Shown here: positions 3,234-39,315 of the stretch, piece by piece | Layout: every line of letters begins with the position of its first letter | Position numbering within the stretch: the first letter of the stretch is position 1 | Assembly (NCBI GenBank): GCA_044343935.1 | Contig: JBIJDU010000003.1 | Location: forward strand, 5,365 to 69,364 | DNA length: 64,000 bases | Source: Candidatus Nanopelagicales bacterium | GTDB taxonomy: Bacteria; Actinomycetota; Actinomycetes; S36-B12; UBA5976 | Reading direction: 5' to 3' | Program-made: the position numbers and the translations under genes | The notes under the pieces: generated by a model | What the model was told of the DNA's origin: nothing | Database searches by the model: none | Seen by the model: the letters and a program-made list of their open reading frames with translations, nothing else

Positions 3234-3277
3234 CCGCCGCGGCACGGGATTCCCCCCTGCATTACCCTTACCCCCCT

Positions 3278-3362
3278 GCGGAAGTGGCGAAATTGGCAGA
3301 CGCACTGGATTTAGGTTCCAGCGCTTTCGGGCGTAGGGGTTCAAGTCCCCTCTTCCGCACCA
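3278..3362 (+). tRNA. tRNA-Leu (anticodon UAG), CCA encoded
   Basis: Hand-folded. Acceptor GCGGAAG/CTTCCGC, D arm GCG-AAATTGGCAGA-CGC, anticodon arm CTGGA-TTTAGGT-TCCAG, long variable arm CGCTTTCGGGCGT, T arm AGGGG-TTCAAGT-CCCCT, discriminator A plus CCA. Total 85 nt. Confidence 0.93.
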
Positions 3363-20971: not shown

Positions 20972-22062
20972 CTGCTACCTAGAAATTCAATAATTGCTGC
21001 AGCAATGCGCTCGCCCGCTTTGCCATCCCATAGCGGTGGCACTACATCTTTTGGTGCTGGCAATTCAGTCACGCGCTGCACCAAATTATCGACTGTTACC
21101 AATTGATTTGAACCATATGTAATAGTGATTGGACGCTCCGTATTGGGGCGCAATGTTAAACAAGGCACTTTAAGAATTGTGGTTTCTTCTTGCACGCCTC
21201 CAGAGTCAGTGACAACAAACTTTGCCCCTTTGACTAACGAGATGAAATCGATGTAATTAAGTGGCTCAATAACTTTGATTCCATCATATTCACCAAGGCC
21301 GGCGTTATACAGTGATGCTTTTCCGCGCGGATGCAGCGGCAGCACGATTTGGGTTTGTTTGGAAACTTCACCTAGTGCTGTGACAATCAATTTAGCAGTT
21401 GTAAGATCATCCACATTCCCAGGTCGATGCAAAGTGGCAACCGCATAATCACCAGTGATGCCGAGTTGATTGGTAATTTTTACCGAATCAAACTCTGCTA
21501 GATGAGATAACAACGTATCAATCATGGAATTACCTACAAAAACTATTTTTCGCTCGGCTAACCCTTCTCGCTTCAGATTGTCTTCTGCTTCTGGGCTGGT
21601 AATCAGTAATAAATCAGAAAGCTGATCAGTTAACTTTCGATTTATCTCTTCAGGCATAGACAAATCAAAACTTCGCAACCCCGCTTCAACGTGCGCAACT
21701 GGAATTTCTAATTTTGCTGCTACTAATGCGGCAGCAACCGTAGAATTCACATCGCCGTAAACCACAATCATTGCTGGCTTCACATCCGCGATTGCTTTTT
21801 CAAAGCCAACCATAATCGCGGCAGTTTGGCTGGCATGTGAACCAGAACCAACCCCAAGATTTAAATCAGGTGTTGGCAGATTTAATAATCTAAAAAACGA
21901 ATCACTTAGCGCATCGTCATAATGCTGGCCGGTATGAATCAACCGTTGCGGAATTCCTGCCTTGGCTAATGCCGCGATAACGGGGGCAGCCTTTGGGAAA
22001 TTCGGTCGAGCGCCAGTAACGTGGACAACATCGCCACTTCGTATTACTGCCTGCTGCGTCAC
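20968..22062 (-). CDS. wecB: UDP-N-acetylglucosamine 2-epimerase (non-hydrolysing)
   Basis: Motifs HTGQHYD, VYGDVNST, HVEAGLRS and DSGGVQEE. Confidence 0.92.
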   Translation of the reverse strand: MTQQAVIRSGDVVHVTGARPNFPKAAPVIAALAKAGIPQRLIHTGQHYDDALSDSFFRLLNLPTPDLNLGVGSGSHASQTAAIMVGFEKAIADVKPAMIVVYGDVNSTVAAALVAAKLEIPVAHVEAGLRSFDLSMPEEINRKLTDQLSDLLLITSPEAEDNLKREGLAERKIVFVGNSMIDTLLSHLAEFDSVKITNQLGITGDYAVATLHRPGNVDDLTTAKLIVTALGEVSKQTQIVLPLHPRGKASLYNAGLGEYDGIKVIEPLNYIDFISLVKGAKFVVTDSGGVQEETTILKVPCLTLRPNTERPITITYGSNQLVTVDNLVQRVTELPAPKDVVPPLWDGKAGERIAAAIIEFLGSR

Positions 22063-23561: not shown

Positions 23562-23579
23562 CGCTTGCGCGGAGGGTTA

Positions 23580-24839
23580 ATGAAGACAGATCTCGCGGTA
23601 ATTGGATTGGGCTATGTCGGTTTGCCACTGGCTCAGGAAGCACTTCGCGCCGGGCTATCAGTTGTTGGTTACGACGTAAGTGATCGCGTAATAACTGGGC
23701 TGAACGCTGGTAAATCACATGTTGATGATTTGTCGGACACTGACATTCAAACCATGATCAAAAATGGATTTACCGCAAGCAAAGATGATCAAGTACTGGA
23801 AGCAGCTAGTGCCATTGTGATTTGTGTGCCAACACCACTTTCCGCCGATGGCGGACCTGATCTTTCTGCCGTGCTTGGTGCTACCGCAGCAGTTGCCAAG
23901 AATTTGAAAAAAGGTCAATTAATTGTTTTGGAGTCAACTACTTATCCAGGCACAACCGAAGAAGTAGTTAAGCCTATCTTGGAGGCTGGCGGCTTGGTTG
24001 CTGGCGAAGATTTTTATCTAGCATTTTCGCCAGAGCGAATTGACCCAGGTAATAAAAAATTTGGGATGCGCAACACGCCAAAAGTTGTTGGTGGTATTAA
24101 TCAAGTTAGCACTGACAAAGCGGTCGCGATGTATGCCAATTTTGTTGATACCGTGGTTCGTGCCAAAGGCGCTAAAGAAGCTGAAATGGCAAAATTGCTC
24201 GAAAACACTTATCGTCATATCAACATTGCGCTGGTGAATGAAATGGCAATGTTCTGCAATGACCTCGGAATTGATTTATGGGATGTAATCAGATGCGCCT
24301 CAACTAAGCCATTCGGTTTTCAAGCTTTTTATCCTGGCCCAGGTGTTGGCGGACACTGCATCCCAATTGATCCAAATTATTTATCGCATCAAGTTAAAAC
24401 GAATCTGGGCTATCCATTTAAGTTTGTTGAGTTGGCACAAGAGATTAATGCGGGTATGCCCAACTATGTGATTCGCCGCGTGCAAGATCAACTAAACACT
24501 GCTGGAAAAGCACTAAATGGAGCAACTGTGTTGCTGTTAGGTGTTACTTACAAACCAAACATTGCAGATCAGCGTGAATCCCCCGCAATTCCAATTGGGC
24601 TTGGCTTAATTGAAAAGGGTGCCAAGGTGATATTTCATGATCCCATGGTTGAGGTTTGGCGCCTAGCTGGCACTGAACTGCCACGAGTTGCAGATCTAAC
24701 TGCCGCACTTAAGCAAGCAGATATCACTGTGATGTTGCAAGACCATGCTAGCTATGACGCTGACCTATTAATTTCCAACTCGAATTTGTTGTTTGATACT
24801 CGCGGCAAATTAGATCATCCCGAGGTGGAGCGACTGTGA
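23580..24839 (+). CDS. UDP-N-acetylhexosamine 6-dehydrogenase (WecC/WbpA/TviB family)
   Basis: Start refined to ATG 23580, with GGAGGG upstream. Rossmann motif VIGLGYVGLPLA, LESTTYPGTTEE, and catalytic Cys GVGGHCIPIDP. The substrate (ManNAc versus GlcNAc) cannot be resolved from sequence alone. Confidence 0.85.
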   Translation: MKTDLAVIGLGYVGLPLAQEALRAGLSVVGYDVSDRVITGLNAGKSHVDDLSDTDIQTMIKNGFTASKDDQVLEAASAIVICVPTPLSADGGPDLSAVLGATAAVAKNLKKGQLIVLESTTYPGTTEEVVKPILEAGGLVAGEDFYLAFSPERIDPGNKKFGMRNTPKVVGGINQVSTDKAVAMYANFVDTVVRAKGAKEAEMAKLLENTYRHINIALVNEMAMFCNDLGIDLWDVIRCASTKPFGFQAFYPGPGVGGHCIPIDPNYLSHQVKTNLGYPFKFVELAQEINAGMPNYVIRRVQDQLNTAGKALNGATVLLLGVTYKPNIADQRESPAIPIGLGLIEKGAKVIFHDPMVEVWRLAGTELPRVADLTAALKQADITVMLQDHASYDADLLISNSNLLFDTRGKLDHPEVERL

Positions 24840-25675
24840 GTGAATTTCACCAGCTAAAACCAGTTGGTCAGAAGTTAAGTTTTGGCGCATACATAAAGGA
24901 CTTATGGAAGCGTAGATTTTTCATGATGTCATTTGCTCGGGCTCGTGTTGAAGGACAAAACTCCAGTGCCGCTTTGGGTCAACTTTGGTTGCTATTAACG
25001 CCGCTGTTAACCGCAGCAGTTTATTACCTTTTATTTGGTGTAATTCTTGGCGTCTCTCGTGGGATTGAAAACTTTATCGCATTTTTAGTTATTGGGGTAA
25101 TGATGTTTCGATTTACTTCCAATAGTGCAAACGCCGGTGCAATATCGATTATCTCAAACAAAGGATTAATCCGATCACTACATTTCCCCAGGGCGTTGCT
25201 ACCAATCTCAGCATCACTCCAGCAATTCCTGCAATTTCTACCATCGCTTATAGTGGTATTGATTGCCGTGATAGCAACTGGCGAACCAATTAGATTTACT
25301 TGGATATTGATAATTCCTATCATTCTGATTCAATTTGTTTTTAACACTGGAATTGCCTTGCTGCTTGCACGAGTTGTGAATAGGACCCGTGATTTAGCGA
25401 AGTTGAGTCCATTCTTAATTCGCATGTGGGGATATCTCAGTGGCATTTTCTTTAGTATTGAGTTATCCAAAGAGAGATTTCCAGAACTGATTGAACCTTT
25501 TTTGAGCTACAACCCTGCACATATTTTTATGCAGTTGACTCGAAGTATTTTCATTGAGTCGATTGATTCTTCAATGCAAGATTGGTTATGGGGAATTGGC
25601 TGGGCGATGGCGGTATTTTTGCTAGGTTTTTATTTCTTCTTCAAAGGTGAAGGTAAATATGGTCGAGACCAATAG
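24836..25675 (+). CDS. ABC-2 type polysaccharide/teichoic-acid export permease (Wzm/TagG-like)
   Basis: 279 aa with six hydrophobic segments. It overlaps the upstream dehydrogenase by 4 nt and is followed by the cognate ATPase. Confidence 0.88.
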   Translation: MSEFHQLKPVGQKLSFGAYIKDLWKRRFFMMSFARARVEGQNSSAALGQLWLLLTPLLTAAVYYLLFGVILGVSRGIENFIAFLVIGVMMFRFTSNSANAGAISIISNKGLIRSLHFPRALLPISASLQQFLQFLPSLIVVLIAVIATGEPIRFTWILIIPIILIQFVFNTGIALLLARVVNRTRDLAKLSPFLIRMWGYLSGIFFSIELSKERFPELIEPFLSYNPAHIFMQLTRSIFIESIDSSMQDWLWGIGWAMAVFLLGFYFFFKGEGKYGRDQ

Positions 25676-26420
25676 TCGAACCGTTGTTGTTGAAGACTTA
25701 CATGTTTATTATCGAATTCGAACTAAAGTGAAAAGCAAACAAATTGCGGTAAAACAGAATTTACTTGATAAAGCGCTGCGTCGAACTCGCAAAGTTCCCT
25801 TGAAGGAAGTTCATGCCCTGAAGGGCGTTAGTTTCACAACTCATCAAGGTGAAGCGGTTGCCATCATTGGTCGTAATGGCGCTGGCAAAAGCACGCTGCT
25901 GCGCGCAATATCAGGGTTGATTCCGGCCCGAACTGGCTCAATTCTCACCTCATCGCAGCCCTCATTGCTAGGTGTTAATGCAGCACTGATGAATCATTTG
26001 TCGGGCCGACGAAATATCGAACTTGGTGGGTTGGCGTTAGGCATGACACCAGCTGAAGTTGAAGCGAACATGGATGCCATCATTGAATTTTCCGGCTTGG
26101 GTGAATTTATTGATCTGCCACTTAGCACCTATTCCGCTGGCATGGGCGCCAGATTGCGATTTGCGATTGCCTCTTCAGTGCCACAAGAAATTCTGATGAT
26201 TGATGAAGCACTGGCAACTGGTGATGTTAACTTCAAGAAGCGATCGCAAGAGCGGATTTCCGAGCTTAAAGCAAAAGCGGGCACGGTGTTTTTGGTTAGC
26301 CATTCGCATTCCGTCATTCGCGAGACCTGTAACCGCGCCATCTGGCTTGATAAAGGCAAAATGGTGATGGATGGTCCAATGGAGGAAGTTCTCAGCGCCT
26401 ACGAGCAAGCGACTACTTAA
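25659..26420 (+). CDS. polysaccharide export ABC ATPase (Wzt/TagH-like, no C-terminal carbohydrate-binding domain)
   Basis: ATG at 25659. Walker A GRNGAGKST, signature YSAGMGARL and Walker B ILMIDEALATGD. The protein ends shortly after the NBD. Confidence 0.9.
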   Translation: MVETNSRTVVVEDLHVYYRIRTKVKSKQIAVKQNLLDKALRRTRKVPLKEVHALKGVSFTTHQGEAVAIIGRNGAGKSTLLRAISGLIPARTGSILTSSQPSLLGVNAALMNHLSGRRNIELGGLALGMTPAEVEANMDAIIEFSGLGEFIDLPLSTYSAGMGARLRFAIASSVPQEILMIDEALATGDVNFKKRSQERISELKAKAGTVFLVSHSHSVIRETCNRAIWLDKGKMVMDGPMEEVLSAYEQATT

Positions 26421-26422
26421 CT

Positions 26423-27505
26423 ATGCGTGTCTTGGTGATAACGGTGGTGCACCACCCACAAGACGCACGGATTTATTTTCGTGAAATCTCAGCACTGTTA
26501 AGTCACGGCCATCAAGTTAGCTACGCCGCTGCATTTGATTCTTTTCCCATTTCACAACTTGATTCTAGAATTGAAACTATCACAATTCCAAGAGCTAGTG
26601 GCAAAAGCCGATTAAAGGCATTGCTAGCTGCGCGCAAATTGCTGCGATCTAGATCTATTGATTTTGACTTAGTTTTAATTCATGATCCAGAGTTATTATT
26701 AGTAGCAAGCTCGAGCAAAACTGCAGTTGTTTGGGATGTTCATGAAGATACCGCTGCTGCTATCTCAGCTAAAGCATGGTTACCTAAGCTACTCAAGCGG
26801 CCAGCTGCAAGATTCATTAAAAAACTAGAACTGCGTGCCGAGCAACAGCACCACTTGCTGCTAGCCGAAACTGAATATCAATCTCGATTCACCAAACCTC
26901 ATCCAGTAATTCCAAATACTACGTTGGTGCCAGATTATGGTGGGGTTGGACCAACTAAATCAGTTGTTTATTTAGGGAGCATCACCACGCTGCGCGGTGG
27001 TCAAACTTTGCTCTCGGTTGGTAAATCACTTAAACAGCATGGAATTTTGTTGGAGTTAATTGGTAGTTGCCCAGAAACTGATCTCGCCGCGCAATTAACA
27101 AAAGCAGCAAACAATGGTGATTTGATCTGGCATGGATTTATGCCAAACCAAGCAGCAAAACAGCTCTTGCCAGGCAAATTGGCCGGTCTTTCACTGTTGC
27201 AAAATCATCCAAATTATCAAGTTAGCCAACCCACCAAGATCTACGAATACCTTGCTGCCGGAATCCCAGTTATTTCAACTGCACTACCCCACGCCAAAAC
27301 CTTAATCAACACTGCCGATGCTGGCGTTATTGTTGACTTTGATAATGCCGAGCAAGTTGTGGCTGAAATTCTTAACTTAGCTAATGACTCATCTGCTTGG
27401 CAGCGATTGGGCAAAAATGGACATCGCTACGTCCAACAACATCATAATTGGGGTGTTGATCAAGAAAAGTTTGTTAGCGCGCTCGAAGATTTCGCGGCGA
27501 AGTAA
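26423..27505 (+). CDS. glycosyltransferase family 4
   Basis: 360 aa with a GT-B C-terminal half (QPTKIYEYLAAGIPVIST). It starts 3 nt after the ATPase stop. Confidence 0.8.
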   Translation: MRVLVITVVHHPQDARIYFREISALLSHGHQVSYAAAFDSFPISQLDSRIETITIPRASGKSRLKALLAARKLLRSRSIDFDLVLIHDPELLLVASSSKTAVVWDVHEDTAAAISAKAWLPKLLKRPAARFIKKLELRAEQQHHLLLAETEYQSRFTKPHPVIPNTTLVPDYGGVGPTKSVVYLGSITTLRGGQTLLSVGKSLKQHGILLELIGSCPETDLAAQLTKAANNGDLIWHGFMPNQAAKQLLPGKLAGLSLLQNHPNYQVSQPTKIYEYLAAGIPVISTALPHAKTLINTADAGVIVDFDNAEQVVAEILNLANDSSAWQRLGKNGHRYVQQHHNWGVDQEKFVSALEDFAAK

Positions 27506-28475
27506 GAAATCCGACGCCCCAGCTCATATGCATAGTTAATAACACAATTGGTTGCCAGAGCAAAGTCAATAGATCCTTCTTATTAAAGATAAGAATGGAG
27601 CCAACAAGAATTAAAGATAAATACCCAGCAATTGGCACGAAAAACAACCAAGCCCAGCCCAACCCAAATGCAGTTGTGACCAGTAACAGCAAAATTGAAG
27701 TCAGTAGCGCTGAAACCGTAACCGGCGGCGCTAAGTAACGAAGCGACTTAGTTTTAGGATATGTCCGCGCAACTTCACGCCGCCATCTACCGTATTCAAA
27801 GTATTGTTTCGCTAGTAATCTAATTGACGAACGTGGTCGATAAGTGACTTCTAATCTGGGATCAAACCAAACTTTGCCGCCAGTTTGCCGAATTCGGTAA
27901 TTCATCTCCCAATCTTGGGCACGAATAAATGTTTCGTCATAACCGCCAACCCGATCAATAGCGCTCCGCTTAAACACACCCAGATAAACTGTTTTTGTTT
28001 CACCAGCACCACCACCAGTATGAAATCGGGCTGGCCCAACACCTAACGCACTTCGCATCGCAGCAGCTACTGCCTTTTCAAATCTTGTTCGGCCAGTTGC
28101 TGCCATCACACCACCGACTACATCTGCACCAGTTTCAGCGAGCACATTAAGTGCGATCTGAATGTAATTAGGTGTTAACAGGGAATGGCCATCAACTCGA
28201 ACAATCACTTCGTATTTTGACTGCGCGATAGCAAGATTTAATGCAGCAGCAGTTTTTCCAGTTGGATTAGTGACTAACTTAATTCTGGAATCGGCTTGGG
28301 CCAATTTTTCGGCAATCTGATTTGTTTGATCAGTTGAAGGACCAAGGGCTAACACCAGCTCAATTGGGACTGAAACTTGCTGCGCCAAAATCTCCGCGAC
28401 CGCAGCGCTGAGATGCTTGGCTTCGTTTAAAACTGGCATAACGACGCTAACTCCAGTTAGCGGCCCGGTGTTCAT
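27474..28475 (-). CDS. glycosyltransferase family 2 with C-terminal TM helices
   Basis: Start refined to ATG 28475 (MNTGPLTGVSVVMPVLNE). GT-A core (VRVDGHS; RAQDWEMNYR). Three hydrophobic segments at the C-terminus. Confidence 0.85.
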   Translation of the reverse strand: MNTGPLTGVSVVMPVLNEAKHLSAAVAEILAQQVSVPIELVLALGPSTDQTNQIAEKLAQADSRIKLVTNPTGKTAAALNLAIAQSKYEVIVRVDGHSLLTPNYIQIALNVLAETGADVVGGVMAATGRTRFEKAVAAAMRSALGVGPARFHTGGGAGETKTVYLGVFKRSAIDRVGGYDETFIRAQDWEMNYRIRQTGGKVWFDPRLEVTYRPRSSIRLLAKQYFEYGRWRREVARTYPKTKSLRYLAPPVTVSALLTSILLLLVTTAFGLGWAWLFFVPIAGYLSLILVGSILIFNKKDLLTLLWQPIVLLTMHMSWGVGFLTSPRNLRAR

Positions 28476-28500
28476 GGTGTGAAACCTTAGCGGTGAGAGA

Positions 28501-29625
28501 ATGAGCACTGATAGCAGAAGGGATGACGTGTCGGCCAAACCGAAGATTGTGCTTCATATCGGAACTATGAAGTCTGGCACCACCTATCTGCAGCATGGAC
28601 TGCTGAGCCAGTTGTCGCAGCTAGCCGAGAATGGTTGGCTTTATCCAATGCAATTTGCGCCAGCACGAGGTGCGATAAATCATGAGCGAGCAATTTATGG
28701 ACTAGTGGGAAACCATATTCCTTGGGTTGATAGCGCAACAGCGCAACGGATGGCACCGCAATGGCAGAAATTGATCACCGAGATTTCAACCACTAATAGC
28801 AATGTGCTGTTATCTGCTGAAGCAGTTGCGGTAATGATGGAGGATGGAATTGAGAAGTTGTTATCGGCGCTTCCTGTTCGAGATATTGAAGTGGTGCTTA
28901 CCGCTCGAGATTTAGCTCGAGTGCTTCCCTCGTCGTGGCAGCAGAGTGTTCGAAATGGCAGACCATATGGTTATGAAGAATATTTTGACCGCATCAAACG
29001 TGCCAAAGAATTACCAATCAACGAATCAGTTGGTAGCAATTTCTGGCGAAGTTACCAACTGAGTGATGTAGTTTTAAGATGGCAGAAATTTATTCCGTTA
29101 GCGAACATCTCAATAGTCACAGTGCCGACAAAGTTAAGTTCAGATTCGCTTTGGGCTAGATTTGTGAACGCAGTGAATCTGCCATTGGAGACTAGTGAAC
29201 CAATATTTGATGATAAAAAAGCTCATACTTCAATCACTTGGCCTGAAGCGGAGGTCTTGACTCAGCTGAACCAAAAGTGGGCAAAACAAGGTAAGCCTAA
29301 GAAAGCACAAGATCAATTGCGTCGCCGAATTGTGCAGGAGGGGTTTCAGCATCGAGCTAATCGCGGCCAGGCAATTGCGCTCACCGCACCTTGGCTTTCG
29401 CTAGCCCAGCAATGGGCGGCGCAAGATGTTGAACAATTGCTGCAAATTGGGGTGCGAATTCAAGGCAATATCAACGAACTTCTCACAGCAGCGGAGTTAG
29501 CCCCAGCTCAGCCGTGTACTGCGGCTGAAATTGCCGAGGCGAGCGAAGTTGCTGCTCGATTCCATGATCGAATGCGACTGCAGGCAATAACTACCCTTTT
29601 TGGCATCTCTCGAAAACGCAGTTAA
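28501..29625 (+). CDS. predicted PAPS-dependent sulfotransferase-fold protein
   Basis: IVLHIGTMKSGTTYLQ resembles the 5'-phosphosulfate-binding loop (K-[ST]-G-T-T). LTARDLARVLPSSWQQS resembles the 3'-phosphate-binding R...S motif. It is the first gene of a + strand run with ugd and cysD. Confidence 0.6.
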   Translation: MSTDSRRDDVSAKPKIVLHIGTMKSGTTYLQHGLLSQLSQLAENGWLYPMQFAPARGAINHERAIYGLVGNHIPWVDSATAQRMAPQWQKLITEISTTNSNVLLSAEAVAVMMEDGIEKLLSALPVRDIEVVLTARDLARVLPSSWQQSVRNGRPYGYEEYFDRIKRAKELPINESVGSNFWRSYQLSDVVLRWQKFIPLANISIVTVPTKLSSDSLWARFVNAVNLPLETSEPIFDDKKAHTSITWPEAEVLTQLNQKWAKQGKPKKAQDQLRRRIVQEGFQHRANRGQAIALTAPWLSLAQQWAAQDVEQLLQIGVRIQGNINELLTAAELAPAQPCTAAEIAEASEVAARFHDRMRLQAITTLFGISRKRS

Positions 29626-29658
29626 GGTAGATTTGGCCGCATCAACCGCTAGGACTTA

Positions 29659-30972
29659 ATGACTACAGGCATGCAGGTATCCGTTGTTGGATGCGGCTAT
29701 TTAGGCGCGGTATTAGCTGCTGTGCTAGCCGAACAAGGCAATCAAGTGATTGGGCTTGATGTCGATGACGCCAAAGTCTCCCAACTAAATTCTGGTATTC
29801 CGCCATTTTTCGAACCAGAGTTTGAATCTGTTCTGCAGCGTTCATTAGCGAGCGGCAAATTAAGCTTCACAACTGATCCAGCCAGAATAGCTAGTAGTGA
29901 GATTGTGTTCATTTGTGTTGGCACCCCACAGCTTGACGGTGGTGCCGCTGATTTATCGCAACTATGGCGAGCTGCTGATGCTATTGCACCACATTTATCA
30001 CCAACTGCAATTGTGGTTGGTCGCTCAACTGTGCCAGTTGGTACAGCTGCAAAATTAGAACAGCGGCTTAATCAGAAATCTGGTCATAGTTTCCAATTAG
30101 CTTGGAATCCAGAATTTCTGCGCGAAGGTCATGCTATAGCTGACACTCGATTGCCAGATCGAATTGTGATCGGATCAACAAACGCTGATGCAATTACAAA
30201 GATTAAAGATATTTATCAACCACAGTTAGTCAATCAAGTTCCGTTCTTGGTTATGGATGTTTCAACTGCCGAACTAGTTAAAGTATCCGCAAATGCATTT
30301 TTGGCAACAAAAATTTCATTTATTAATGCAATTTCAGAAGTTGCCGATATTGCTGGGGCTGACATTGTTGCGTTGGCTGAAGCAATTGGTCTTGATCCAA
30401 GAATTGGAAACAAGTTTCTAGCCGCTGGCGTTGGCTTTGGTGGTGGCTGCTTACCAAAAGACATTCGCGCCTTTATCGCAAGCAGTCAAGAGATTGGTGC
30501 TGGTGAAGCGATGCAATTCTTAGTTGAAGTTGACCGGATCAATCTGCGCCAGCGCGATCGAGTAGTTAAGTTGGCAACATCCAAACTAGGTAATGTAGCT
30601 GGCAAGAAGGTCGTGGTGCTCGGCGCTGCCTTTAAGCCCAATAGCGATGACGTCCGCGACTCCCCAGCGCTAGATGTGGCAAATGCCATGCATCAACTTG
30701 GCGCGACGGTATTTGTCCACGACCCAAAGGCCATCGATAACGCTCGAGCGCGCTTTCCGGAGCTCAATTATGAGCGTGACCTCACCGAAATTTTTAAGAA
30801 TGCTGAATTAGTATTGCACTTAACCGAATGGCAGCAGTATCGAGAGTTAGATCCGGCAAAGTTGCTATCCAAGGTGGCTAATCCAGTAATTATTGATGGC
30901 CGAAACGTGCTGGATTTTGCAAAGTGGCGAGCTGCTGGCTGGCAGATTGCTGGAATGGGCAAACGGACTTAA
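29659..30972 (+). CDS. ugd: UDP-glucose 6-dehydrogenase
   Basis: [13 protein letters not shown]ossmann motif. Catalytic Cys [19 protein letters not shown]. Confidence 0.92.
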
Positions 30973-31889
30973 TGACTAGTGAACTAATTAGTACTGACCA
31001 GGTGTTAGACGCACTTGAGTCAGAGGCAATTGGTATTTTGCGTGAAACTGCTGGAGCATTCAAGAATCCAGTTGTGCTCTATTCGGTTGGTAAAGATTCC
31101 AGCGTTTTGCTTGAACTTGTTAAAAAAGCATTCGCGCCAGCGCCAATTCCATTCACTTTTCTTCATGTCGATACCACATTTGATCCCCATGAAATGATCG
31201 AATTTAGAGACGCAATCGCAAAGGAACTAGGACTTAATTTAGTCGTGCATGTAAACCCTGAGGGCGCAAACGGGGCAGTTACGCCGTGGACCCATGGCGT
31301 TCAGGAATACACCAGAATTATGAAAACAATTGCGTTACGACAGGCCTTAGATGCGGGCGGCTATGACGCAGCTATCGGAGGGGCAAGGCGTGACGAAGAG
31401 CGTTCTCGCTCAAAAGAGCGAGTGTTTAGTTTGCGCGAACCCGGCCACCGTTGGGAACCAAGAAATCAACGCCCGGAGATGTGGCGAACGCGCAATACGT
31501 CTTTAACTGAAGGTCAAACTATGCGGGTTTTCCCATTGAGTAATTGGACTGAAGTAGACATCTGGCGTTACATCAGGCGCGAAAAAATCAAACTAGTTCC
31601 ACTTTATTTCGCTAAACCCAGGCGAAGTATTATCCGTGATGGTCAGGTGATTGTTTTGGATGACGATCGCATGCCCCTTCTTCCCGGTGAAGTTCCACAA
31701 GATCGGATCGTGAGATTTAGATCGTTAGGATGCTATCCAGTTACCGCGGCTATTGAATCGACCGCCGCTACCATAGATGAGCTCGTCGCCGAAATGGAAG
31801 CTGCCCGCATTAGTGAAAGAGCAGGGAGACTTATCGATGGCGATCGAGAGGATTCGATGGAAGCAAAAAAGACCGAAGGTTATTTCTAA
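30972..31889 (+). CDS. cysD: sulfate adenylyltransferase subunit 2 (copy 1)
   Basis: ATG at 30972 overlaps the ugd stop (TAATG). PP-loop [19 protein letters not shown], and the C-terminus KKTEGYF. Confidence 0.93.
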
Positions 31890-31901
31890 TCCATTACAAA
31901 T

Positions 31902-32756
31902 TTAGGGATTACAACTTTCGCATCGCGCTGGCTCTAATACCGTCGCCACAACTCTTTTCATCACCATGAAATCGCATGAAACGCAGCCAAGTAGTTCTCG
32001 GTGCACAGCATCAGGATTTAATCGATCGCAATCTCTGCAACGTAATCCTCGATCATATATCTCTTTTCCCCAACCTGGACAATCGCACTTGGGGCAGAGA
32101 GCGCAAATTCGAGCTATCAGATTATTACCCAAGCTTGCAAGATTTTTCTGTCGTGATGGTGATGAGTTAGCGCGAAAATCTGACTCTATAACTACTTGTT
32201 TATCGTTAGACTTATCAGCAATCTGAGCAATTGCAAAACTAAGTTTTGCTATCTCATCAATTCCCTTTACTGAAAATTTTTTGCCGCTTGATTTATACCC
32301 ACTAACAATCAACTTATGTTTTGGAAAGTCTGCCCGAACTAAGAATTCACTCAAATCAGTAGTTGGGTCGGCTGTTATTCTTGCAGCCACTATTTCGGTA
32401 AATCGTTTCGAGACTTCAATTACTAAGTCTCTCTCACCATCACAAAAGACCATTGTCTCGATATCAGAGTTAATAAACGGCAAAACCGGATCTGCTCCGA
32501 TAGATCCTTCTGAACCAATTCCAAAACTTAAACCAAGTTCTTCCATACCCCATTTTGCCTTGATTAAAGCTGTATCAAACGGAGAATTTAATCGAGCAAT
32601 CTCGCCACTGAAAGTGCCCAGGGTGTCGGTATCCACGTTAGCATTAACAATTTTCGCTGATAGTTTTTCTAAAAAAAATGGCGCAATGATTAAATGCTTT
32701 TGGTGTTTTGTTGCAAAGGCAATTTCTTTTCCGTAATAAGGGTGGGGTTTTTGCAC
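31902..32756 (-). CDS. uncharacterised protein with C-terminal double zinc ribbon (resembles what I recall as DUF6671; unverified)
   Basis: 284 aa. N-terminal motifs ATKHQKH, DTDTLGTFSGE and GSEGSIGADPVLPF. The C-terminus has CALCPKCDC...CRDC...CVSC...CESC. Lower-GC coding sequence. Confidence 0.7.
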   Translation of the reverse strand: MQKPHPYYGKEIAFATKHQKHLIIAPFFLEKLSAKIVNANVDTDTLGTFSGEIARLNSPFDTALIKAKWGMEELGLSFGIGSEGSIGADPVLPFINSDIETMVFCDGERDLVIEVSKRFTEIVAARITADPTTDLSEFLVRADFPKHKLIVSGYKSSGKKFSVKGIDEIAKLSFAIAQIADKSNDKQVVIESDFRANSSPSRQKNLASLGNNLIARICALCPKCDCPGWGKEIYDRGLRCRDCDRLNPDAVHRELLGCVSCDFMVMKRVVATVLEPARCESCNP

Positions 32757-32767
32757 GATTTTGAAAG

Positions 32768-33130
32768 TTATTGGAAAATCGAAATTAGTGAGCCAATTGA
32801 CTCATTAGACTCCGATGGGTGCCTAAATTTTCTGGTTGCGTTTATCTTATAGGTGTTTTTTCGTCCCTTTTTTACAACTCGAATATACCCAGCCTCAGCT
32901 AGATCAGAGATGATGGCTTGAGCGCTACGCTCCGTAATTCCTACCGTATTTGCTATGTCCCTAATCAGACTGTCTGGATATCGAGACACATGAACAAGGA
33001 CATGACCATGATTGGAAAGAAATGTCCACTGTTTTCGATTTATTGCAGTCTGGGCACTGGTCGCCTTCTTTACCTTGCTCTGCATAGCCAAATAATACCT
33101 GAAATCTTCCTCAGGTATAGATCCTGACAT
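32768..33130 (-). CDS. small winged-helix DNA-binding protein (ArsR/MarR-like)
   Basis: 120 aa. HTH-like IRDIANTVGITERSAQAIISDLAEAGYI, followed by a wing VVKKGRKNTYKIN. Confidence 0.72.
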   Translation of the reverse strand: MSGSIPEEDFRYYLAMQSKVKKATSAQTAINRKQWTFLSNHGHVLVHVSRYPDSLIRDIANTVGITERSAQAIISDLAEAGYIRVVKKGRKNTYKINATRKFRHPSESNESIGSLISIFQ

Positions 33131-33143
33131 CGAATTATTTGTT

Positions 33144-33171
33144 TTGACAAGAAAATTTTTTCCTGTATTGT
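33144..33171 (+). promoter_or_regulatory. sigma70-like promoter giving a leaderless or near-leaderless IDH-like mRNA
   Basis: TTGACA (33144-33149), a 16-nt spacer, then TATTGT (33166-33171). The first ATG is at 33179, 7 nt after the -10 element, and no SD is visible. The whole divergent gap is 48 nt. Confidence 0.4.
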
Positions 33172-33178
33172 ACTTCCT

Positions 33179-34624
33179 ATGATGATGATAAATCCCGTTA
33201 AGACCGTCACGGTAATCCCAGGTGATGGTATTGGTCCAGAGGTCATTAGTTCAGTAAAAGAACTCATTTCGGCAAGTGGTGCGAGGGTGGAATGGGAAGA
33301 GCAAATCGCTGGTGAGCATGCCTTTCAGCGGGGAATTGCAACCGGCGTACCGATTGAAACCATAGAATCTATTGAGAAGAATCGGGTAGTTCTCAAAGGA
33401 CCATTGGCTACCCCAATCGGCCATGGTCAAAAAAGCGCGAATGTTACGTTGCGTAAATTTTTTGAAACTTTTGCCAATATCCGACCGGCCAGAGAGCTCC
33501 CAGGGGTGCCTAGTGCATTCGCGGGAAGAGGCATTGACTTTGTGGTGGTCCGCGAAAATATCGAGGATCTTTATGCTGGCGTAGAACACTTTCAGACGCC
33601 AAATGTAACGCAATGTTTGAAACTAATTTCAAGGCTTGGCTGTCAACGAATCAGTGATGCGGCCTTTGCTTTTGCGGTTGCTGAGCATAGAAGGCATGTC
33701 ACAGTTGCCACTAAAGCTAACATAATGAAACTGACCGAAGGGATGTTCAAAAGCGAATTTGAGGCTATAGCTGCTCGTTATCCTGAAATTACAACATCTC
33801 ACATGCTTATAGATAACTGTGCACATCAAATGGTGATTAAGCCAGAACAATTCGACGTAATAGTTACTTCCAACATGAATGGTGACATAATTAGCGATCT
33901 TGCCAGTGGCCTAGTAGGTGGACTTGGATTCGCACCTTCAGCAAATATTGGGTACGACATTGCCATGTTTGAACCTGTTCATGGTACGGCACCAGATATT
34001 GCAGGTTTGAACAAAGCAAATCCAACCGCTGCTATTTTGTCGGCAACAATGTTACTTCGTCACATCAATGAGTTTGATTCAGCGAATAAAATTGAACAGG
34101 CTTTATTTGCTACTCTCGATCAAAATATATTTACATCTGATGTCGCGAAGGATAATGGATTAAGCACGAGCAAATTCACCGAAGAGATCATTTCACGATT
34201 GGGATCTAAATCCAGCATGCAATCAAGAGCACACAAGTCTTTTGATATGACCAAAATTATGCCTGAAAACAGTGACCTAAAGGCAGGTTCAAGAGAGAAA
34301 GTTGGCGTTGATATCTTTATTGAAACTAACGATAGCCCTGAAAATCTGGCTTGGAAAATTGAGATGATCATCAAGGAAACTCCTTATACTCTCAAAATGA
34401 TTTCTAATCGTGGAACTCAAGTTTGGCCCGCTACTGGAGGATCAGCTACTTTGGTTGATCACTTCAGATGTAGATTTGTTATTTCGGATCGCAGCAGATG
34501 GAATGACCGCTCTATCTTGGAATTAGTTTCAATTATTTCAAACCATTTTAGGTGGATGCACATTGAAAAATTAGAGCAAATCAATGGCTCTCCTGGGTTC
34601 TCTAAAGCCCACGGTGAAAATTGA
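33179..34624 (+). CDS. NAD-type isocitrate dehydrogenase family enzyme with ~145-aa extra C-terminal domain
   Basis: VIPGDGIGPEV and LKGPLATPIGHGQKSANVTLRKFFETFANIRP (the IDH3-like substrate loop), plus NMNGDIISDLASGLVGGLG. Residues from about 335 to 481 have no counterpart in ~335-aa IDH/IPMDH enzymes. Confidence 0.85.
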   Translation: MMMINPVKTVTVIPGDGIGPEVISSVKELISASGARVEWEEQIAGEHAFQRGIATGVPIETIESIEKNRVVLKGPLATPIGHGQKSANVTLRKFFETFANIRPARELPGVPSAFAGRGIDFVVVRENIEDLYAGVEHFQTPNVTQCLKLISRLGCQRISDAAFAFAVAEHRRHVTVATKANIMKLTEGMFKSEFEAIAARYPEITTSHMLIDNCAHQMVIKPEQFDVIVTSNMNGDIISDLASGLVGGLGFAPSANIGYDIAMFEPVHGTAPDIAGLNKANPTAAILSATMLLRHINEFDSANKIEQALFATLDQNIFTSDVAKDNGLSTSKFTEEIISRLGSKSSMQSRAHKSFDMTKIMPENSDLKAGSREKVGVDIFIETNDSPENLAWKIEMIIKETPYTLKMISNRGTQVWPATGGSATLVDHFRCRFVISDRSRWNDRSILELVSIISNHFRWMHIEKLEQINGSPGFSKAHGEN

Positions 34625-34888
34625 TCTAATCAGTAAATTCTTCTCATCTGGATTCATCTTTACCTGGATTCGGACATAAAATAGCCACGCGGAGCAAAAA
34701 ATGTCGGCCAAGGCATTTATGTTCAGATTCACCACATAGGATTCGTCGGGTACTAATGAAAGGTAATCCTGAACTAGATTAACTAGGCATAAAGAGCAAC
34801 CGTAAGTCGATGCCAATAATCGCTAAACTGAAGGTGTTAATCTGATTGCCATAGCCAATCAAACGTGAAGAGTAGGTCAGATACGGTT

Positions 34889-35806
34889 ATGTCCATGTCA
34901 ACAATCAGTACCCATCAAGTGCTTGATGCTTTAGAGGCCGAAGCGATAGGAATTCTTCGTGAGACTGCCGGATCATTCAAAAATCCAGTCTTGATGTATT
35001 CGATTGGCAAAGATTCAAGCGTGCTGTTGGAGCTTGCTCGCAAGGCATTTTTTCCGGCTCCAATCCCATTTACATTCCTTCATATTGACACTACTTTTAA
35101 ATTTCGAGAGATGATTGAGTTTCGTGAGGCTCGCGCTAAAGAGTTTGGTTTAAACCTAATTGTTCACACCAATCCCGAAGGAGCCAACGGCGAAGTTACA
35201 GCTTGGACTCATGGTGCACAGGAATACACTCGAATCATGAAAACTGTTGCTCTCCGCCAAGCATTAGATGCGGGAGGATATGACGCCGCGATTGGCGGTG
35301 CTCGTCGCGACGAAGAGCGTTCTCGCTCCAAAGAGCGGGTATTTAGTTTACGAGAGCAAGGGCATCGCTGGGAGCCAAGAAATCAGCGACCAGAAATGTG
35401 GCGATCTAGGAATACTGCGTTAAGCGAGGGTCAATCAATGCGTGTATTTCCATTGAGTAATTGGACCGAAATTGATGTCTGGCGTTATATCAAACGTGAA
35501 AATATTGAAATTGTGCCACTTTATTACGCTAAGCCAAGAAGAAGCGTGATAAGAGATGGTCAGATTATTGTGCTAGACGATGATCGTATGCCACTTCTGC
35601 CAGGTGAGGTGCCGCAAAACCGGATGGTGAGATTTCGATCGCTTGGTTGCTATCCAGTGACTGCTGCAATTGAATCAACTGCAACAACAATGGATGAATT
35701 GGTCGCCGAAATGGAAGCAATAAAAGTAAGTGAACGCGCTGGTCGATTAATTGATGGTGATCGCGAAGCATCCATGGAAGCCAAAAAGACGGAAGGGTAT
35801 TTCTGA
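34889..35806 (+). CDS. cysD: sulfate adenylyltransferase subunit 2 (copy 2)
   Basis: ATG 34889 was chosen because [11 protein letters not shown] aligns with [11 protein letters not shown] of copy 1. [11 protein letters not shown] and GGARRDEE motifs. The stop overlaps the cysNC start (TGATG). Confidence 0.92.
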
Positions 35807-37644
35807 TGTCCACTTCAACAACACCATTATTGCGCGTTGTGACCTGTGGTTCAGTTGATGACGGCAAGAGCACATTGATCGGTCGGTTATTGGTAGAAAC
35901 TGATTCCGTTCCACTTGATGAAGTGGAACGCGCTCGCACATATCGCAGAGCTGGGTCAATTATTCCAATAGGTGAAGTAGATTATTCATTGCTGACTGAT
36001 GGTTTAGAGGCTGAGCGGGAACAAGGCATAACTATCGATGTGGCATACCGGCACTTACTACTGCCATCTGGCCGAAGAGTCATTCTGGCTGATGGCCCAG
36101 GCCATGAGCAATACACGAGAAATATGGCGGTTGCTGCATCGGACGCTGATGTTGCACTGCTGCTCGTCGATGCAACTAAAGGTGTTCGGGATCAAACTAT
36201 GCGCCACCTAACGGTTTGCGCACTTATGGGTGTGGGAACTGTAATTGCCGTTATCAATAAATTGGATGCTAAGGATTTTTCTGAGCAAATTGCAGCTGAC
36301 ATTGCTACAAGATTAACTGAGGCGGCAAATCGACTTGGGGTAAAAAACTTAATGATGATTCCCGTTAGTGCACTTTTGGGTGATAACGTAATTACGGAAA
36401 GTAAAAATACTCCTTGGTATAACGGACCAACGGTGTTAGGTGCATTGCAGCAATGGCAACCTGGCCAATCGCTGGCTGATCAATCGCTAAGGTTACCGGT
36501 ACAGACAATCTTGCGAGCAGACAACTGGCGCGGTTATGGCGGTACTTTAGTTAGTGGCACTTTACGTTTGGGTGATAGTTTTGTAGTTGCGCAAACAGGT
36601 AAGCAAGCAAAAGTTGCTGAAATGTATGTAAATGGCAAAGTAGCAAGTCAAGCACTACCTGGTGAGGCAGTTGCAATCAAACCAGATGTTGAAATAGACA
36701 TCTCTAGAGGCGATGTAATTTCTGACAAATTACAAGACTTACAACCAGCCGATAGGTTTTCTGCTGATTTGGTTTGGATTGGTGAAGAGCCGTTAGCCCA
36801 TGGCCGGTCATATGCCTTGATCTCAGGTCCAGCGTCTGTTAATGCCACTGTCACCACTATTCGCCACAAACTCGATGTTAATACTGGCCATGAAGATGCT
36901 GCCCGCGTACTAAATCTTAATGAAATTGGTCGAGTTACTATCGCAACTGAAAAACCGATTCCGTTAGATCTTTACAGTGAGATGCGAGATACCGGTGGTT
37001 TCTTATTAGTTGATCGAGTTACTAAACACACAGTTGCTGCTGGCATGGTGCACCATGTGCTGCGTCGCTCATTTAACGTGGTGCCACATGAGTTTGAGAT
37101 CAATAAAGAAGCTCGCGGTCGATTAAAAGCTCAAACACCAAAAGTAATTTGGCTAACTGGTCTGCCAGGCTCGGGTAAATCTACGCTAGCAAATGAAGTA
37201 GAGCGCCGACTTTATGCAGCTGGCGTCCACACTTATCTGCTCGATGGCGATAACGTGCGAACTGGCTTAAACAAAGACCTAGGTTTCACTGCAACTGATC
37301 GAGCTGAGAATGTTCGTCGAGTCGGCGAAGTTGCTAAGTTGATGGTGGATGCTGGTTTGATAGTTCTAGTATCGCTAGTTTCACCGTTTAGAAGCGACCG
37401 AGATGCAGTGAAAGAGTTATTCCCAACCGGCGAGTTCATTGAGGTATTTGTTAATACGCCAGTTGAGATTTGTGCGCAGCGAGATCCAAAAGGACTATAC
37501 GCAAAAGCGCAAGCTGGTAATCTGCCAAATATGACTGGCATGGGACAAAATTACGAACCACCACTTAAGGCGGATTTAGTAATTGATGGCACCGCAGACT
37601 TGGCGCAAAGCGCAGCTTTAGTTATCTCAAAAATTATGGGTTAA
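35806..37644 (+). CDS. cysNC: bifunctional sulfate adenylyltransferase subunit 1 / adenylylsulfate kinase
   Basis: GTPase motifs [18 protein letters not shown] and NKLD. C-terminal APS kinase [13 protein letters not shown] and LDGDNVR. Confidence 0.95.
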
Positions 37645-38149
37645 GTTGTTGCTTTAGTTTTTGCTGCAACTCATTATTCTTAGTGATCACTAAGTCAGAT
37701 AACTCTGCTCGGTAGTTATCCAACTTTGCCTGCAATGCCTTATCGGTGCTAGCTAAAATTCGAAGTGCTAATAGGCCAGCATTCTTGGCACCGTTAATTG
37801 CAACAGTGGCAACTGGAATGCCTGCTGGCATCTGCACCACGCTTAGTAATGAATCCAGACCATCAAGATGGGATAGCGCTACTGGCACACCAATTACCGG
37901 CAAACTTGTCGCTGATGCAATCATTCCGGGTAGATGTGCCGCACCGCCAGCACCAGCAATAATTACTTGAATGCCAGATTCAGCCGCACTAGCCGCAAAT
38001 TCCAACATCTGAGTCGGCGTTCGATGGGCTGAGATAACAGCAACATCCGAAGTAACACCAAATTCCTGCAGCGTTGTAACAGCGGGCTCCATGGTGGGCC
38101 AATCGGAATCTGAGCCCATCACCACGGCAACTTTAGCTGCAGTCATCAT
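37634..38149 (-). CDS. purE: N5-carboxyaminoimidazole ribonucleotide mutase
   Basis: Motifs [14 protein letters not shown] and AGGAAHLPG. Convergent 11-nt overlap with cysNC. Confidence 0.95.
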
Positions 38150-38163
38150 GGTTCCATTCTAGA

Positions 38164-39315
38164 TTATTCATCAATCTTACCTGCCAAGAAATCAGTGGCA
38201 TGGGCGATGCGCTGTTTAAGGTCAGTCAGATCTGATCCCAGTAAATTGATATGGCCTACTTTTCGATTGGGTTTAACCTCTTTGCCATACAAATGAATTT
38301 TAAGTTCTGGATCTCGCGCTAAACAATGCAGCAAGCCACGGTGTAGGTCGAGATGTTCGCCGCCCAGGATGTTTCCCATAACAACTTTCGATGCAGTCAT
38401 GGCCGGTGAGCCAAGTGGCAAATCCAGCACGGCTCGCAGATGGTTTTCAAATTGTGATGTCACTGCCCCATCCTGGGTCCAGTGACCAGAATTATGTGGT
38501 CGCATTGCTAGCTCATTAACTAATAGCGCACCACTGCCCGTATCGAACATCTCAACTGCGAGTACCCCAATCACATCCAACTCAGCAGCAATCTGAAGTG
38601 CTAACTGTTGCGCTTGCGATGCTCGCTCTTCATCTAAATCTGGAGCGGGCGCTAACACTTGGGTGCAGATGCCATTTTGCTGCACGGTTTCCACAATTGG
38701 ATACGCCACCGCTTGATTATGTGGTGATCGAACCACCAAGGCAGAAAGTTCTCGCTGAAATTTAACTTTTTCTTCCAATAAAACTGGAAAGCTCAACTGC
38801 GCTAACTCAACAGCGTCATTTACTACCCAAACCCCACGACCGTCATATCCACCACGCGGCGATTTTGCGATCAACGGATAGCCAATTTGATTAGCAAATT
38901 CAGTCGCACCCGATAGATCAACGGCGACTTTCCAATTAGGCATTGGTGCATCTAACTGCTGAAGTTTGGCTCGCATGGCTGACTTATCTGCCGCAAACTC
39001 AATTGCTTCACTGGTTGGATAGACCTTAATTCCGCTCGTTGTTAGATGAGTCAAAGTTGCTGGTGGAACTAACTCGTGGTCCAACGTGATCACATCGACC
39101 GATTGGGCAAACTTCAGCACCGCAACTAAATCAGTTAACTCACCCACCACCGTATCAGCAACAACTAACGCGGCACTCTCTGAATTAGATTGCGCAAAAA
39201 CTTTAAATTGAATACCGAGCGCGCTGGCAGCTTCTGCCATCATGCGCGCTAACTGACCTGCCCCAAGCACACCAACAACCAATGTGCCAATAGGAAGATC
39301 AGATCTAGCGTGCAT
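38164..39315 (-). CDS. purK: N5-carboxyaminoimidazole ribonucleotide synthase
   Basis: ATP-grasp protein upstream of purE. C-terminal YGK...RKVGHI motif. Confidence 0.93.
   Translation of the reverse strand: MHARSDLPIGTLVVGVLGAGQLARMMAEAASALGIQFKVFAQSNSESAALVVADTVVGELTDLVAVLKFAQSVDVITLDHELVPPATLTHLTTSGIKVYPTSEAIEFAADKSAMRAKLQQLDAPMPNWKVAVDLSGATEFANQIGYPLIAKSPRGGYDGRGVWVVNDAVELAQLSFPVLLEEKVKFQRELSALVVRSPHNQAVAYPIVETVQQNGICTQVLAPAPDLDEERASQAQQLALQIAAELDVIGVLAVEMFDTGSGALLVNELAMRPHNSGHWTQDGAVTSQFENHLRAVLDLPLGSPAMTASKVVMGNILGGEHLDLHRGLLHCLARDPELKIHLYGKEVKPNRKVGHINLLGSDLTDLKQRIAHATDFLAGKIDE

Follow-up and report, generated by a model that had tools for sequence, protein, structure and literature searches.

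The occurrence of genes for the synthesis of 3'-phosphoadenosine 5'-phosphosulfate (PAPS) together with sulfotransferase genes in one polysaccharide cluster has been called a hallmark of the formation of sulfated polysaccharides, in a study that also solved the structure (PMC11641403). Such arrangements are already known from the polysaccharide clusters of marine Gram-negative bacteria (PMC11641403) and from the synthesis of synechan (PMC8205485), and the case reported from an actinomycete is a prediction only (PMC13390465). Among bacteria, sulfated polysaccharides are considered uncommon, and a paper of 2026 presents them as essentially cyanobacterial (PMC13390465). Here we describe a locus of an uncultured freshwater Candidatus Nanopelagicales bacterium in which the gene of a 374-residue protein, a predicted PAPS-dependent glycan sulfotransferase, lies between a putative cell-wall glycopolymer cluster and a set of sulfate-activation genes. 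The segment in question, positions 28501-37644, belongs to a 64-kb stretch of contig JBIJDU010000003.1 (hereafter the window; G+C ~46%). The gene content of the window and of related loci suggests that the organism most likely decorates a wall polymer with sulfate groups, a modification that is undescribed for this group.

A sequence-only reading of the window had proposed that a sulfotransferase-like gene heads a + strand run with ugd and cysD, coupled by TAATG, and that a second cysD and a cysN-cysC fusion further downstream would generate PAPS and not just adenosine 5'-phosphosulfate (APS). All of these features are present in the window. Both copies of CysD (cysD1 and cysD2; Table 1) exceed the curated cut-off of TIGR02039 (396.6) and the CysN-CysC fusion (CysNC) exceeds that of NF004035 (715), and the expected motifs are readable in the translations, namely the PP-loop SxGKDS in CysD, G1 (GSVDDGKST) and G4 (NKLD) in CysN, and the P-loop GLPGSGKST in CysC. 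Judged by these models the set of CysD and CysN-CysC is intact and would be competent to synthesize PAPS. The TAA stop of ugd and the ATG start of cysD1 share one base in TAATG (30970-30974), an arrangement from which translational coupling of cysD1 to ugd is predicted, and the stop codon of cysD2 overlaps the start of cysNC as TGATG. One correction concerns the head of the run, where the sulfotransferase gene and ugd are not coupled in this way and are separated by a spacer of 33 nt.

The association of these genes is maintained in related genomes. Using a profile of 22 sequences, 79 loci of the family were collected from species-representative genomes, and their gene contexts were read by tblastn together with flanks of ±10 kb. 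All seven orthologous loci (54-89% identity; Nanopelagicales or Actinomycetota metagenome-assembled genomes, MAGs) carry, in this order, genes for UDP-N-acetylmannosamine (UDP-ManNAc) dehydrogenase, Wzm, Wzt, a glycosyltransferase of family 4 (GT4), a - strand glycosyltransferase of family 2 (GT2), the sulfotransferase, Ugd and CysD, and in six of the seven the run sulfotransferase-ugd-cysD continues uninterrupted into cysNC and purE. In each of these six genomes the run comes after a cluster with GT4, GT2, a Wzm/Wzt-type exporter, UDP-ManNAc dehydrogenase, MnaA and a ligase of the LytR-CpsA-Psr type. The near-identical strain L005 likewise has an uninterrupted sulfotransferase-ugd-cysD-cysNC run. 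A reverse search of metagenome contigs from CysNC returned only the arrangement ugd-cysD-cysNC-purE, with the sulfotransferase gene present wherever the flank was long enough. Comparative genomics thus strengthens the proposed link between PAPS genes and sulfotransferase, since six related genomes and L005 show it without interruption and the reverse search agrees. The identical 374-residue protein is encoded on at least 22 metagenome contigs of the same species, and every gene compared with its counterpart in the nearest relative is under purifying selection; at a dS of ~0.6, dN/dS is 0.10 for the sulfotransferase gene, 0.07 for ugd and 0.011 for cysD1.

The association extends to more distant members of the family. 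Paralogues at ~36% identity adjoin genes for GT4, Wzt, Wzm and UDP-ManNAc dehydrogenase in ~35 further loci, often as tandem pairs, and in three distant paralogue loci (L014, L061 and L096) cysC-cysN-cysD is divergently adjacent. Homologues of GT4 and/or Wzt/Wzm occur within 10 kb in 42 of the 79 family loci. A first search had returned 219 homologues, mostly actinobacterial 'hypothetical proteins' without a precomputed Pfam domain; a profile search reached 25,626 cluster representatives at E<=1e-3, of which 2,416 also pass E<=1e-30, and fused tandem double-domain proteins of 750-850 residues exist in the family. Contigs assigned by binning to Limnocylindrales (Chloroflexota) and Rubricoccaceae (L024 and L068) also carry members adjoining Wzt/Wzm, which reflects either lateral transfer among freshwater plankton or a binning error.

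The case for a sulfotransferase is carried by conserved residues and by the predicted fold. The 374-residue frame contains HIGTMKSGTTYLQ at residues 19-31 and TARDLARVLPSSWQQS at residues 134-149, the two stretches that had been read from the sequence as 5'-phosphosulfate-binding (PSB) and 3'-phosphate-binding (3'-PB) motifs. In an alignment of 48 homologues, with identity down to 24%, K24, Q31, E107, R136, W146, W194 and G322 are invariant in all 48 sequences and G26, T27 and T28 are conserved in at least 90% of them; S144 is constant among the 22 closer sequences but varies within the full set. A model computed by AlphaFold2 from the family alignment (pLDDT 91.5, pTM 0.88) places HIGTMKSGTTYLQ, which includes HIGTMKSGTT and has K24 as its invariant Lys, after the strand formed by residues 15-21. 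R136, the Arg of TARDLARVLPS in TARDLARVLPSSWQQS, comes immediately after strand 128-135, and S144 lies eight residues past R136 in helix 138-151. K24, E107 and R136 thus follow strands 1, 2 and 3 of the model, respectively, as in known sulfotransferases, where the PSB loop is followed by the catalytic base and then by the 3'-PB motif. When the model was compared with the PDB by Foldseek, the top six matches, which are all of those at E < 1e-3, were heparan-sulfate 3-O-sulfotransferases (E 1e-4 to 4e-4, probability 1.00), followed by NDST1 and the bacterial sulfotransferase 3rnl. Hydropathy indicated no transmembrane (TM) segment in the protein, which is predicted to be a soluble, cytoplasmic enzyme.

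Upstream of the sulfotransferase gene an exporter, a LytR-CpsA-Psr (LCP) ligase, nucleotide-sugar genes and glycosyltransferases stand together in one locus (Table 1). A wall-glycopolymer cluster, with a product that would be exported by an ATP-binding cassette (ABC) transporter and attached by LCP, is a fair description of this gene content, and the sequence-only reading had likewise placed the sulfation genes in a wall-glycopolymer cluster. The Wzm/Wzt exporter models match at family level, under their equivalog cut-offs, and the Wzt protein (257 residues) is without a C-terminal carbohydrate-binding extension. For the dehydrogenase encoded at 23565-24839 the best equivalog-type matches are UDP-ManNAc dehydrogenases, under their own cut-offs. 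The gene of the 742-residue protein is found in the same place on near-identical contigs of the same species (L001-L004). This protein and the 209-residue protein encoded beside it (18121-20971, - strand) are both soluble by hydropathy, and they are candidates for a polymerase or a linkage-unit enzyme.

Table 1. Predicted genes of the glycopolymer and sulfation locus, with window coordinates (aa, amino acids; HexNAc, N-acetylhexosamine; HTH, helix-turn-helix)
Feature	Position	Strand	Basis
LCP glycopolymer-peptidoglycan ligase	16722-18131	+	PF03816 E 1.9e-46, LytR_C; TIGR00350 161 bits, over cut-off
742-aa protein with weak C-terminal GT4-like region	18121-20349	-	weak Glyco_trans_1_4/Glyco_transf_4; no NCBIfam match
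209-aa protein	20342-20971	-	no Pfam/NCBIfam match; no TM segment
MnaA/WecB UDP-GlcNAc 2-epimerase (forming UDP-ManNAc)	20968-22062	-	PF02350 E 4.8e-97; TIGR00236 300 bits, cut-off 210
GT4 glycosyltransferase	22113-23561	+	PF00534 E 9.7e-29
UDP-ManNAc (or related UDP-HexNAc) 6-dehydrogenase, source of N-acetyl-hexosaminuronic acid	23565-24839	+	TIGR03026 427 bits
Wzm/TagG-type ABC-2 permease	24836-25675	+	PF01061; top NCBIfam galactan export permease Wzm/RfbD; five TM-like segments
Wzt/TagH-type ABC ATPase, 257 aa	25647-26420	+	galactan exporter Wzt/RfbE E 1.7e-50; TagH E 2.8e-48
GT4 glycosyltransferase	26423-27505	+	PF00534, PF13692
GT2 glycosyltransferase with membrane segments near the C-terminus, divergent from sulfotransferase gene	27474-28475	-	PF00535 E 3.8e-21; TM-like windows aa 247-280; start per contigs L001/L002
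Predicted PAPS-dependent glycan sulfotransferase, 374 aa	28501-29625	+	AlphaFold2 fold, Foldseek, invariant residues
Ugd/TuaD-like UDP-glucose 6-dehydrogenase (forming UDP-GlcA)	29659-30972	+	three UDPG_MGDP_dh domains; TIGR03026 431 bits; TuaD E 1.7e-114
CysD paralogue 1 (cysD1), sulfate adenylyltransferase small subunit	30972-31889	+	TIGR02039 438 bits
DUF6671 protein, Cys-rich C-terminus	31902-32756	-	Pfam/NCBIfam
120-aa HTH-like open reading frame	32768-33130	-	
icd, isocitrate dehydrogenase, 481 aa	33179-34624	+	Pfam/NCBIfam
CysD paralogue 2 (cysD2)	34889-35806	+	TIGR02039 449 bits
CysN-CysC fusion (ATP sulfurylase GTPase subunit and APS kinase)	35806-37644	+	NF004035 742.9 bits; PF00009, PF22594, PF01583 E 7e-65

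Several observations weigh against the proposed sulfation of a wall polymer, and they bear on the enzyme, its acceptor and the destination of the PAPS. With respect to the enzyme, Pfam and NCBIfam scans of the 374-residue protein gave no match, and searches of PDB sequences by phmmer and with a family profile gave chance matches only (E > 0.1). Of the profile and structure searches suggested by the sequence-only reading, the Pfam models thus failed to recognise the protein, and AlphaFold and Foldseek identified a sulfotransferase fold. Relatives reach the Sulfotransfer Pfam models at E 9e-5 to 0.01, under cut-off and mostly over the N-terminal loop, with weak matches to Sulfotransfer_3 in 19 and to Sulfotransfer_1 in 17 (best E 9e-5) of the 48 family members. 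Alignment of the family by hhalign with human HS3ST1, represented either by its single sequence (checked against 1zrh_A) or by a profile of 18 sequences, gave E-values of 0.05-0.06, which are not significant; the same alignment puts K24 on the PSB Lys of HS3ST1 (IGVRKGGT), with HIGTMKSGTTYLQ opposite IGVRKGGTRALLE, and R136 and S144 on LRDPSERVLS, with the strand ISIVT on IHIVD. The Foldseek matches have moderate TM-scores (0.45 and 0.64), and further down the list come P-loop kinases (PezT/zeta, PFKFB3 and thymidylate kinase, E 1e-3 to 3e-2). It could be argued from these matches, and from the failure of any sulfotransferase model to match significantly, that the protein is another P-loop-like enzyme, such as a kinase acting on the polymer by phosphorylation or capping. 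This is highly improbable in view of the Foldseek result, in which the six best matches and most of those at E < 5e-3 are sulfotransferases, and of the loop GxxKSGTT, whose Lys stands ahead of Gly-Thr-Thr as in PSB loops and does not follow the Walker A pattern GxxxxGK[ST]; furthermore, the strand-helix motif RDxxxRxxPS is in register with the 3'-PB motif of HS3ST1, and the linkage to PAPS-making genes is conserved. A sulfotransferase is therefore the likely identity of the 374-residue protein, whose fold and invariant PAPS-motif residues are those of such enzymes, even though curated sequence models do not admit it. Its acceptor could be a lipid, quinone, small metabolite or protein, as with the mycobacterial enzymes Stf0 and Stf3. 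The acceptor is not revealed by sequence, and glycan clusters are not the only setting in which the family occurs: three tandem members follow a methylcrotonyl-CoA carboxylase/HMG-CoA lyase operon in Nocardioides dokdonensis (L101, 10001-13534), a single member lies between accA and maf in Motilibacter, and another lies between glnA and glnE in one Nanopelagicales MAG. These orphan, acyl-CoA carboxylase and glnA/glnE contexts rule out the view that the family always resides in glycan clusters, and most of the distant family loci in Nanopelagicales are without cysDNC within 10 kb. The TagO/WecA priming transferase and TagA were not found among the scanned open reading frames of the window; wecA of mycobacteria is encoded elsewhere, and the same could apply to these genes here. 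An acceptor other than the exported wall polymer is nevertheless improbable, as the orthologues and the ~36% paralogues keep their GT4-Wzt-Wzm-UDP-ManNAc dehydrogenase neighbours over deep divergence, four family genes sit inside a TagF-type teichoic-acid cluster of an uncultured actinobacterium (L103, 1437-11161; three Glyphos_transf and a GT2), the sulfotransferase gene is coupled with ugd as its neighbour in the run, and the top structural matches are sulfotransferases of polysaccharides and not of small molecules.

It could also be argued that cysD-cysNC serves, or also serves, ordinary sulfate assimilation, with CysH and sulfite reductase encoded elsewhere, and that its adjacency to glycan genes is synteny without function. 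The window is just 64 kb of a genome, cysNC always adjoins purE in a housekeeping neighbourhood, and the single cysDNC operon of Mycobacterium tuberculosis feeds both assimilation and sulfation. The organism, moreover, lies outside the cultured genera analysed in the literature: its SahH has its nearest named relatives, with 91-93% identity, in uncultured 'Candidatus Nanopelagicales' MAGs, with no cultured genus among the top matches, and the published deficit in sulfate assimilation is for this reason an extrapolation here. That deficit, however, is one of several points that speak against assimilation, as all cultured Nanopelagicales are reported to lack a complete pathway of assimilatory sulfate reduction and to depend on sulfur in reduced form (PMC5301498, PMC12817590, bioRxiv 10.1101/343640). 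In all orthologous loci cysD forms one unit with ugd, to which it is coupled, and with the sulfotransferase-like gene. As the sequence-only reading had noted for the 64 kb, domains of cysH, sulfite reductase and cysK were absent from the scanned open reading frames of >=120 residues in the window; judged by gene order, cysH, sulfite reductase and cysteine synthase were also absent from the ±10 kb flanks of the related loci. Actinobacterial CysH uses APS, not PAPS, so that a CysC domain would be superfluous to assimilation and needed only for sulfation. Assimilation is thus an unlikely explanation for these genes, and from the operon structure, the APS-using CysH and the literature on cultured Nanopelagicales we infer that PAPS is made here only for sulfation.

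From the gene identities, the fold, the conserved motifs, the maintained operon linkage and the purifying selection documented above we infer an acceptor, roles for individual residues and an order of steps. We consider it reasonably probable that a teichuronic-acid-like polymer undergoes PAPS-dependent O-sulfation in the cytoplasm and is then exported by the ABC transporter and attached to the wall by LCP. MnaA, the UDP-HexNAc dehydrogenase and Ugd would supply UDP-ManNAc, N-acetyl-hexosaminuronic acid and UDP-glucuronic acid (UDP-GlcA), and the three GT4 enzymes and one GT2 would assemble the polymer, borne by a polyprenyl carrier, on the cytoplasmic side of the membrane. CysD and CysN (ATP sulfurylase) with the fused CysC (APS kinase) would convert sulfate into PAPS, from which the soluble 374-residue enzyme would move the sulfuryl group to hydroxyls of the nascent, still lipid-linked polymer in the cytoplasm. 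In this enzyme K24 would bind the 5'-phosphosulfate, R136 and S144 would bind the 3'-phosphate and E107 would act as the general base. The Wzm/Wzt-type transporter would export the sulfated polymer, which the LCP enzyme would join to peptidoglycan. A chain-terminating cap recognised by the exporter is disfavoured and is probably not what the enzyme makes, because Wzt lacks a carbohydrate-binding domain and many loci contain two to four tandem family genes. A more far-reaching proposal, which we put forward as tentative and rather doubtful, is that a lineage unable to assimilate sulfate, or with no need to, keeps the sulfate-activation operon solely to sulfate a phosphate-free uronic-acid wall polyanion, whose sulfate esters would replace teichoic-acid phosphate as the provider of wall charge in phosphorus-poor lakes, and that the 374-residue enzyme would be the first to be characterised from a very large and so far unrecognised family of sulfotransferases that tailor Gram-positive wall polymers. 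Such a replacement might be likened to that of phospholipid by sulfolipid in marine phytoplankton.

The window carries two cysD genes, both constrained, and one cysNC, and the block at 30972-34888 (cysD1, the DUF6671 gene, the 120-residue HTH-like frame and icd) sits between ugd and the ancestral cysD. Three genes, DUF6671 (-), the 120-residue frame (-) and icd (+), separate the two copies. The block is confined to this species and its nearest relative (L007, L086) and is absent from six further genomes (L008-L013) and from strain L005; all four of its genes are under purifying selection (dN/dS 0.011-0.21). The cysD genes of L008-L013 share 90-94% identity with cysD2 and 85% with cysD1, and in a tree cysD2 clusters with the single cysD of the relatives, while cysD1 is a long-branch sister of that clade. 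By these comparisons cysD2 is the orthologue of the single cysD of relatives. The DUF6671 gene, the 120-residue frame and icd are part of this species-specific insertion and probably do not belong to the sulfation module. That cysD1 is a decaying duplicate is ruled out by its dN/dS of 0.011.

Strain L005 is a mosaic relative to the window. Identity is 99-100% to the end of the sulfotransferase gene, ~94% in ugd and ~75% in cysD and most of cysN, and it recovers to 95-99% in the cysC part and beyond; L005 is without the inserted block. This mosaic (29620-37000) is an allelic replacement by recombination inside the operon. Assembly collapse of two cysD copies was rejected as an origin of the L005 operon, because the copies have 73% DNA identity and share no exact word of more than 20 nt, and because the cysD of L005 is a third allele. 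The locus may be a recombination hot spot, which would fit phage-driven variation of the cell surface.

With regard to gene starts, the sulfotransferase gene (+) and the divergently transcribed GT2 gene (-), each taken at its longest open reading frame, overlap at 28501-28538. The sulfotransferase gene may start instead at GTG 28528, because homologues of 365 residues begin MSA...; with the shorter genes indicated by homologues (sulfotransferase from GTG 28528, GT2 from 28475) ~50 nt would be left for two divergent starts. An identical 14-nt string, GGACTTAATGACTA, spans the start of ugd (29653-29666) and that of cysD1 (30963-30976), a repeat that could reflect chance, a common translation-initiation context or a recombination scar. 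A scan of 26000-38500 for promoters and terminators found such sites no more frequently than in shuffled sequence. The Rfam scan revealed no riboswitch in the 260-nt spacer between icd and cysD2 or elsewhere in the window, the sole match being a tRNA at 3278-3359 (+). This tRNA overlaps the 5' end of the longest CbiM frame (2487-3344, -), and the TTG start of that frame is for this reason probably too far upstream.

The wider window has the order lpqB-mtrB-mtrA, sahH, pgi/pmi, pmm, DUF3499, manC ... LCP ... purE-purK-birA-pccB-maf-accA, and across 4118-44285 the glycopolymer and sulfation genes fill the slot between the LCP gene and purE. The gene order of 4118-44285 mirrors the Rv3244c-Rv3285 region of M. 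tuberculosis, and the same conserved actinobacterial neighbourhood holds the mycobacterial wall-linker genes. Further downstream, a frame of 278 residues (51852-52688, +), which comes straight after a full-length aldehyde dehydrogenase of 480 residues, fits only the N-terminal half of that enzyme's profile and may be a truncated duplicate.

Literature searches turned up no sulfated, peptidoglycan-attached wall polymer of a Gram-positive bacterium, and no paper in the literature searched refers to a sulfotransferase while naming Nanopelagicales, Planktophila, Nanopelagicus or the acI lineage. If the proposal is correct, a sulfated polyanion is made for the wall by kin of the most abundant freshwater bacterioplankton. 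This would explain the retention of cysD-cysNC in a lineage said to depend on reduced sulfur, contribute sulfated glycans of bacterial origin to the organic-sulfur pool of lakes and provide a function for a large family of 'hypothetical' actinobacterial proteins. The claim is directly testable with one recombinant enzyme and 35S-sulfate labelling.

Several described systems resemble the locus in part. M. tuberculosis likewise employs CysD and a CysN-CysC protein to make PAPS for sulfation, with Stf enzymes that produce sulfolipid-1 and sulfomenaquinone, and it shares with the window the core synteny lpqB-mtrBA...sahH...manB...Lcp1...purEK-birA-accD5. In contrast to the window, its acceptors are trehalose lipids and menaquinone, its stf genes are not part of a wall-polysaccharide cluster and its cysDNC also feeds assimilation. 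In Sinorhizobium dedicated duplicate sulfate-activation genes (NodPQ) feed PAPS to the glycan sulfotransferases NodH and LpsS, although the acceptors there are lipo-chitooligosaccharide and lipopolysaccharide, and the enzyme families and the envelope are different. The teichuronic acids of Bacillus subtilis (tua) and Micrococcus luteus provide a counterpart of the proposed polymer, being phosphate-free, anionic wall polymers that contain uronic acid; in the window, ugd is TuaD-like (E 1.7e-114), a ManNAcA-type dehydrogenase is encoded and attachment by LCP is expected. The tua systems, however, use the Wzx-like TuaB and not an ABC transporter for export and have no known sulfation, and no protein of the window scores above the cut-off of any tua equivalog model. 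The heparan-sulfate 3-O-sulfotransferases and the NDST domain (1vkj, 3uan, 1zrh, 1nst) are the best structural matches to the 374-residue protein, with the PSB Lys and the 3'-PB Arg and Ser in register, and act on a polymer of uronic acid and hexosamine. They are, however, animal Golgi enzymes with 12-14% identity to the window protein, whose family has an extra helical C-terminal part of ~140 residues and places its invariant Glu after strand 2 and not at the position of the catalytic Glu of HS3ST1.

Close parallels in genetic organization are the capsule clusters of Vibrio sp. KMM 8419 and Cobetia marina (PMC11641403, PMC11766843), in which a second, cluster-borne set of cysD, cysN and cysC accompanies sulfotransferases in an ABC-transporter-dependent cluster and sulfation has been inferred to be cytoplasmic and to precede export. 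These are Gram-negative, Kps-type capsules with chemically proven sulfate and annotated sulfotransferases, whereas the window would specify an LCP-attached Gram-positive polymer and contains a family without a Pfam model. Sulfotransferases are also embedded in the xss cluster for synechan of Synechocystis (PMC8205485) and in wps-1 of Actinoplanes missouriensis (PMC13390465). The latter is likewise actinobacterial and rests on prediction only, and an adjacent gene for sulfate adenylyltransferase/APS kinase is required for its phenotype (PMC13390465). Both clusters encode canonical sulfotransferases recognised by InterPro and direct Wzx/Wzy-dependent export of extracellular polysaccharide, in contrast with the ABC-type export, LCP attachment and unrecognised sulfotransferase family predicted for the window. 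What sets the locus apart is the combination of an LCP-attached, ABC-exported Gram-positive wall polymer as the putative substrate, an enzyme family unknown to curated models and a host lineage reported to be auxotrophic for reduced sulfur.

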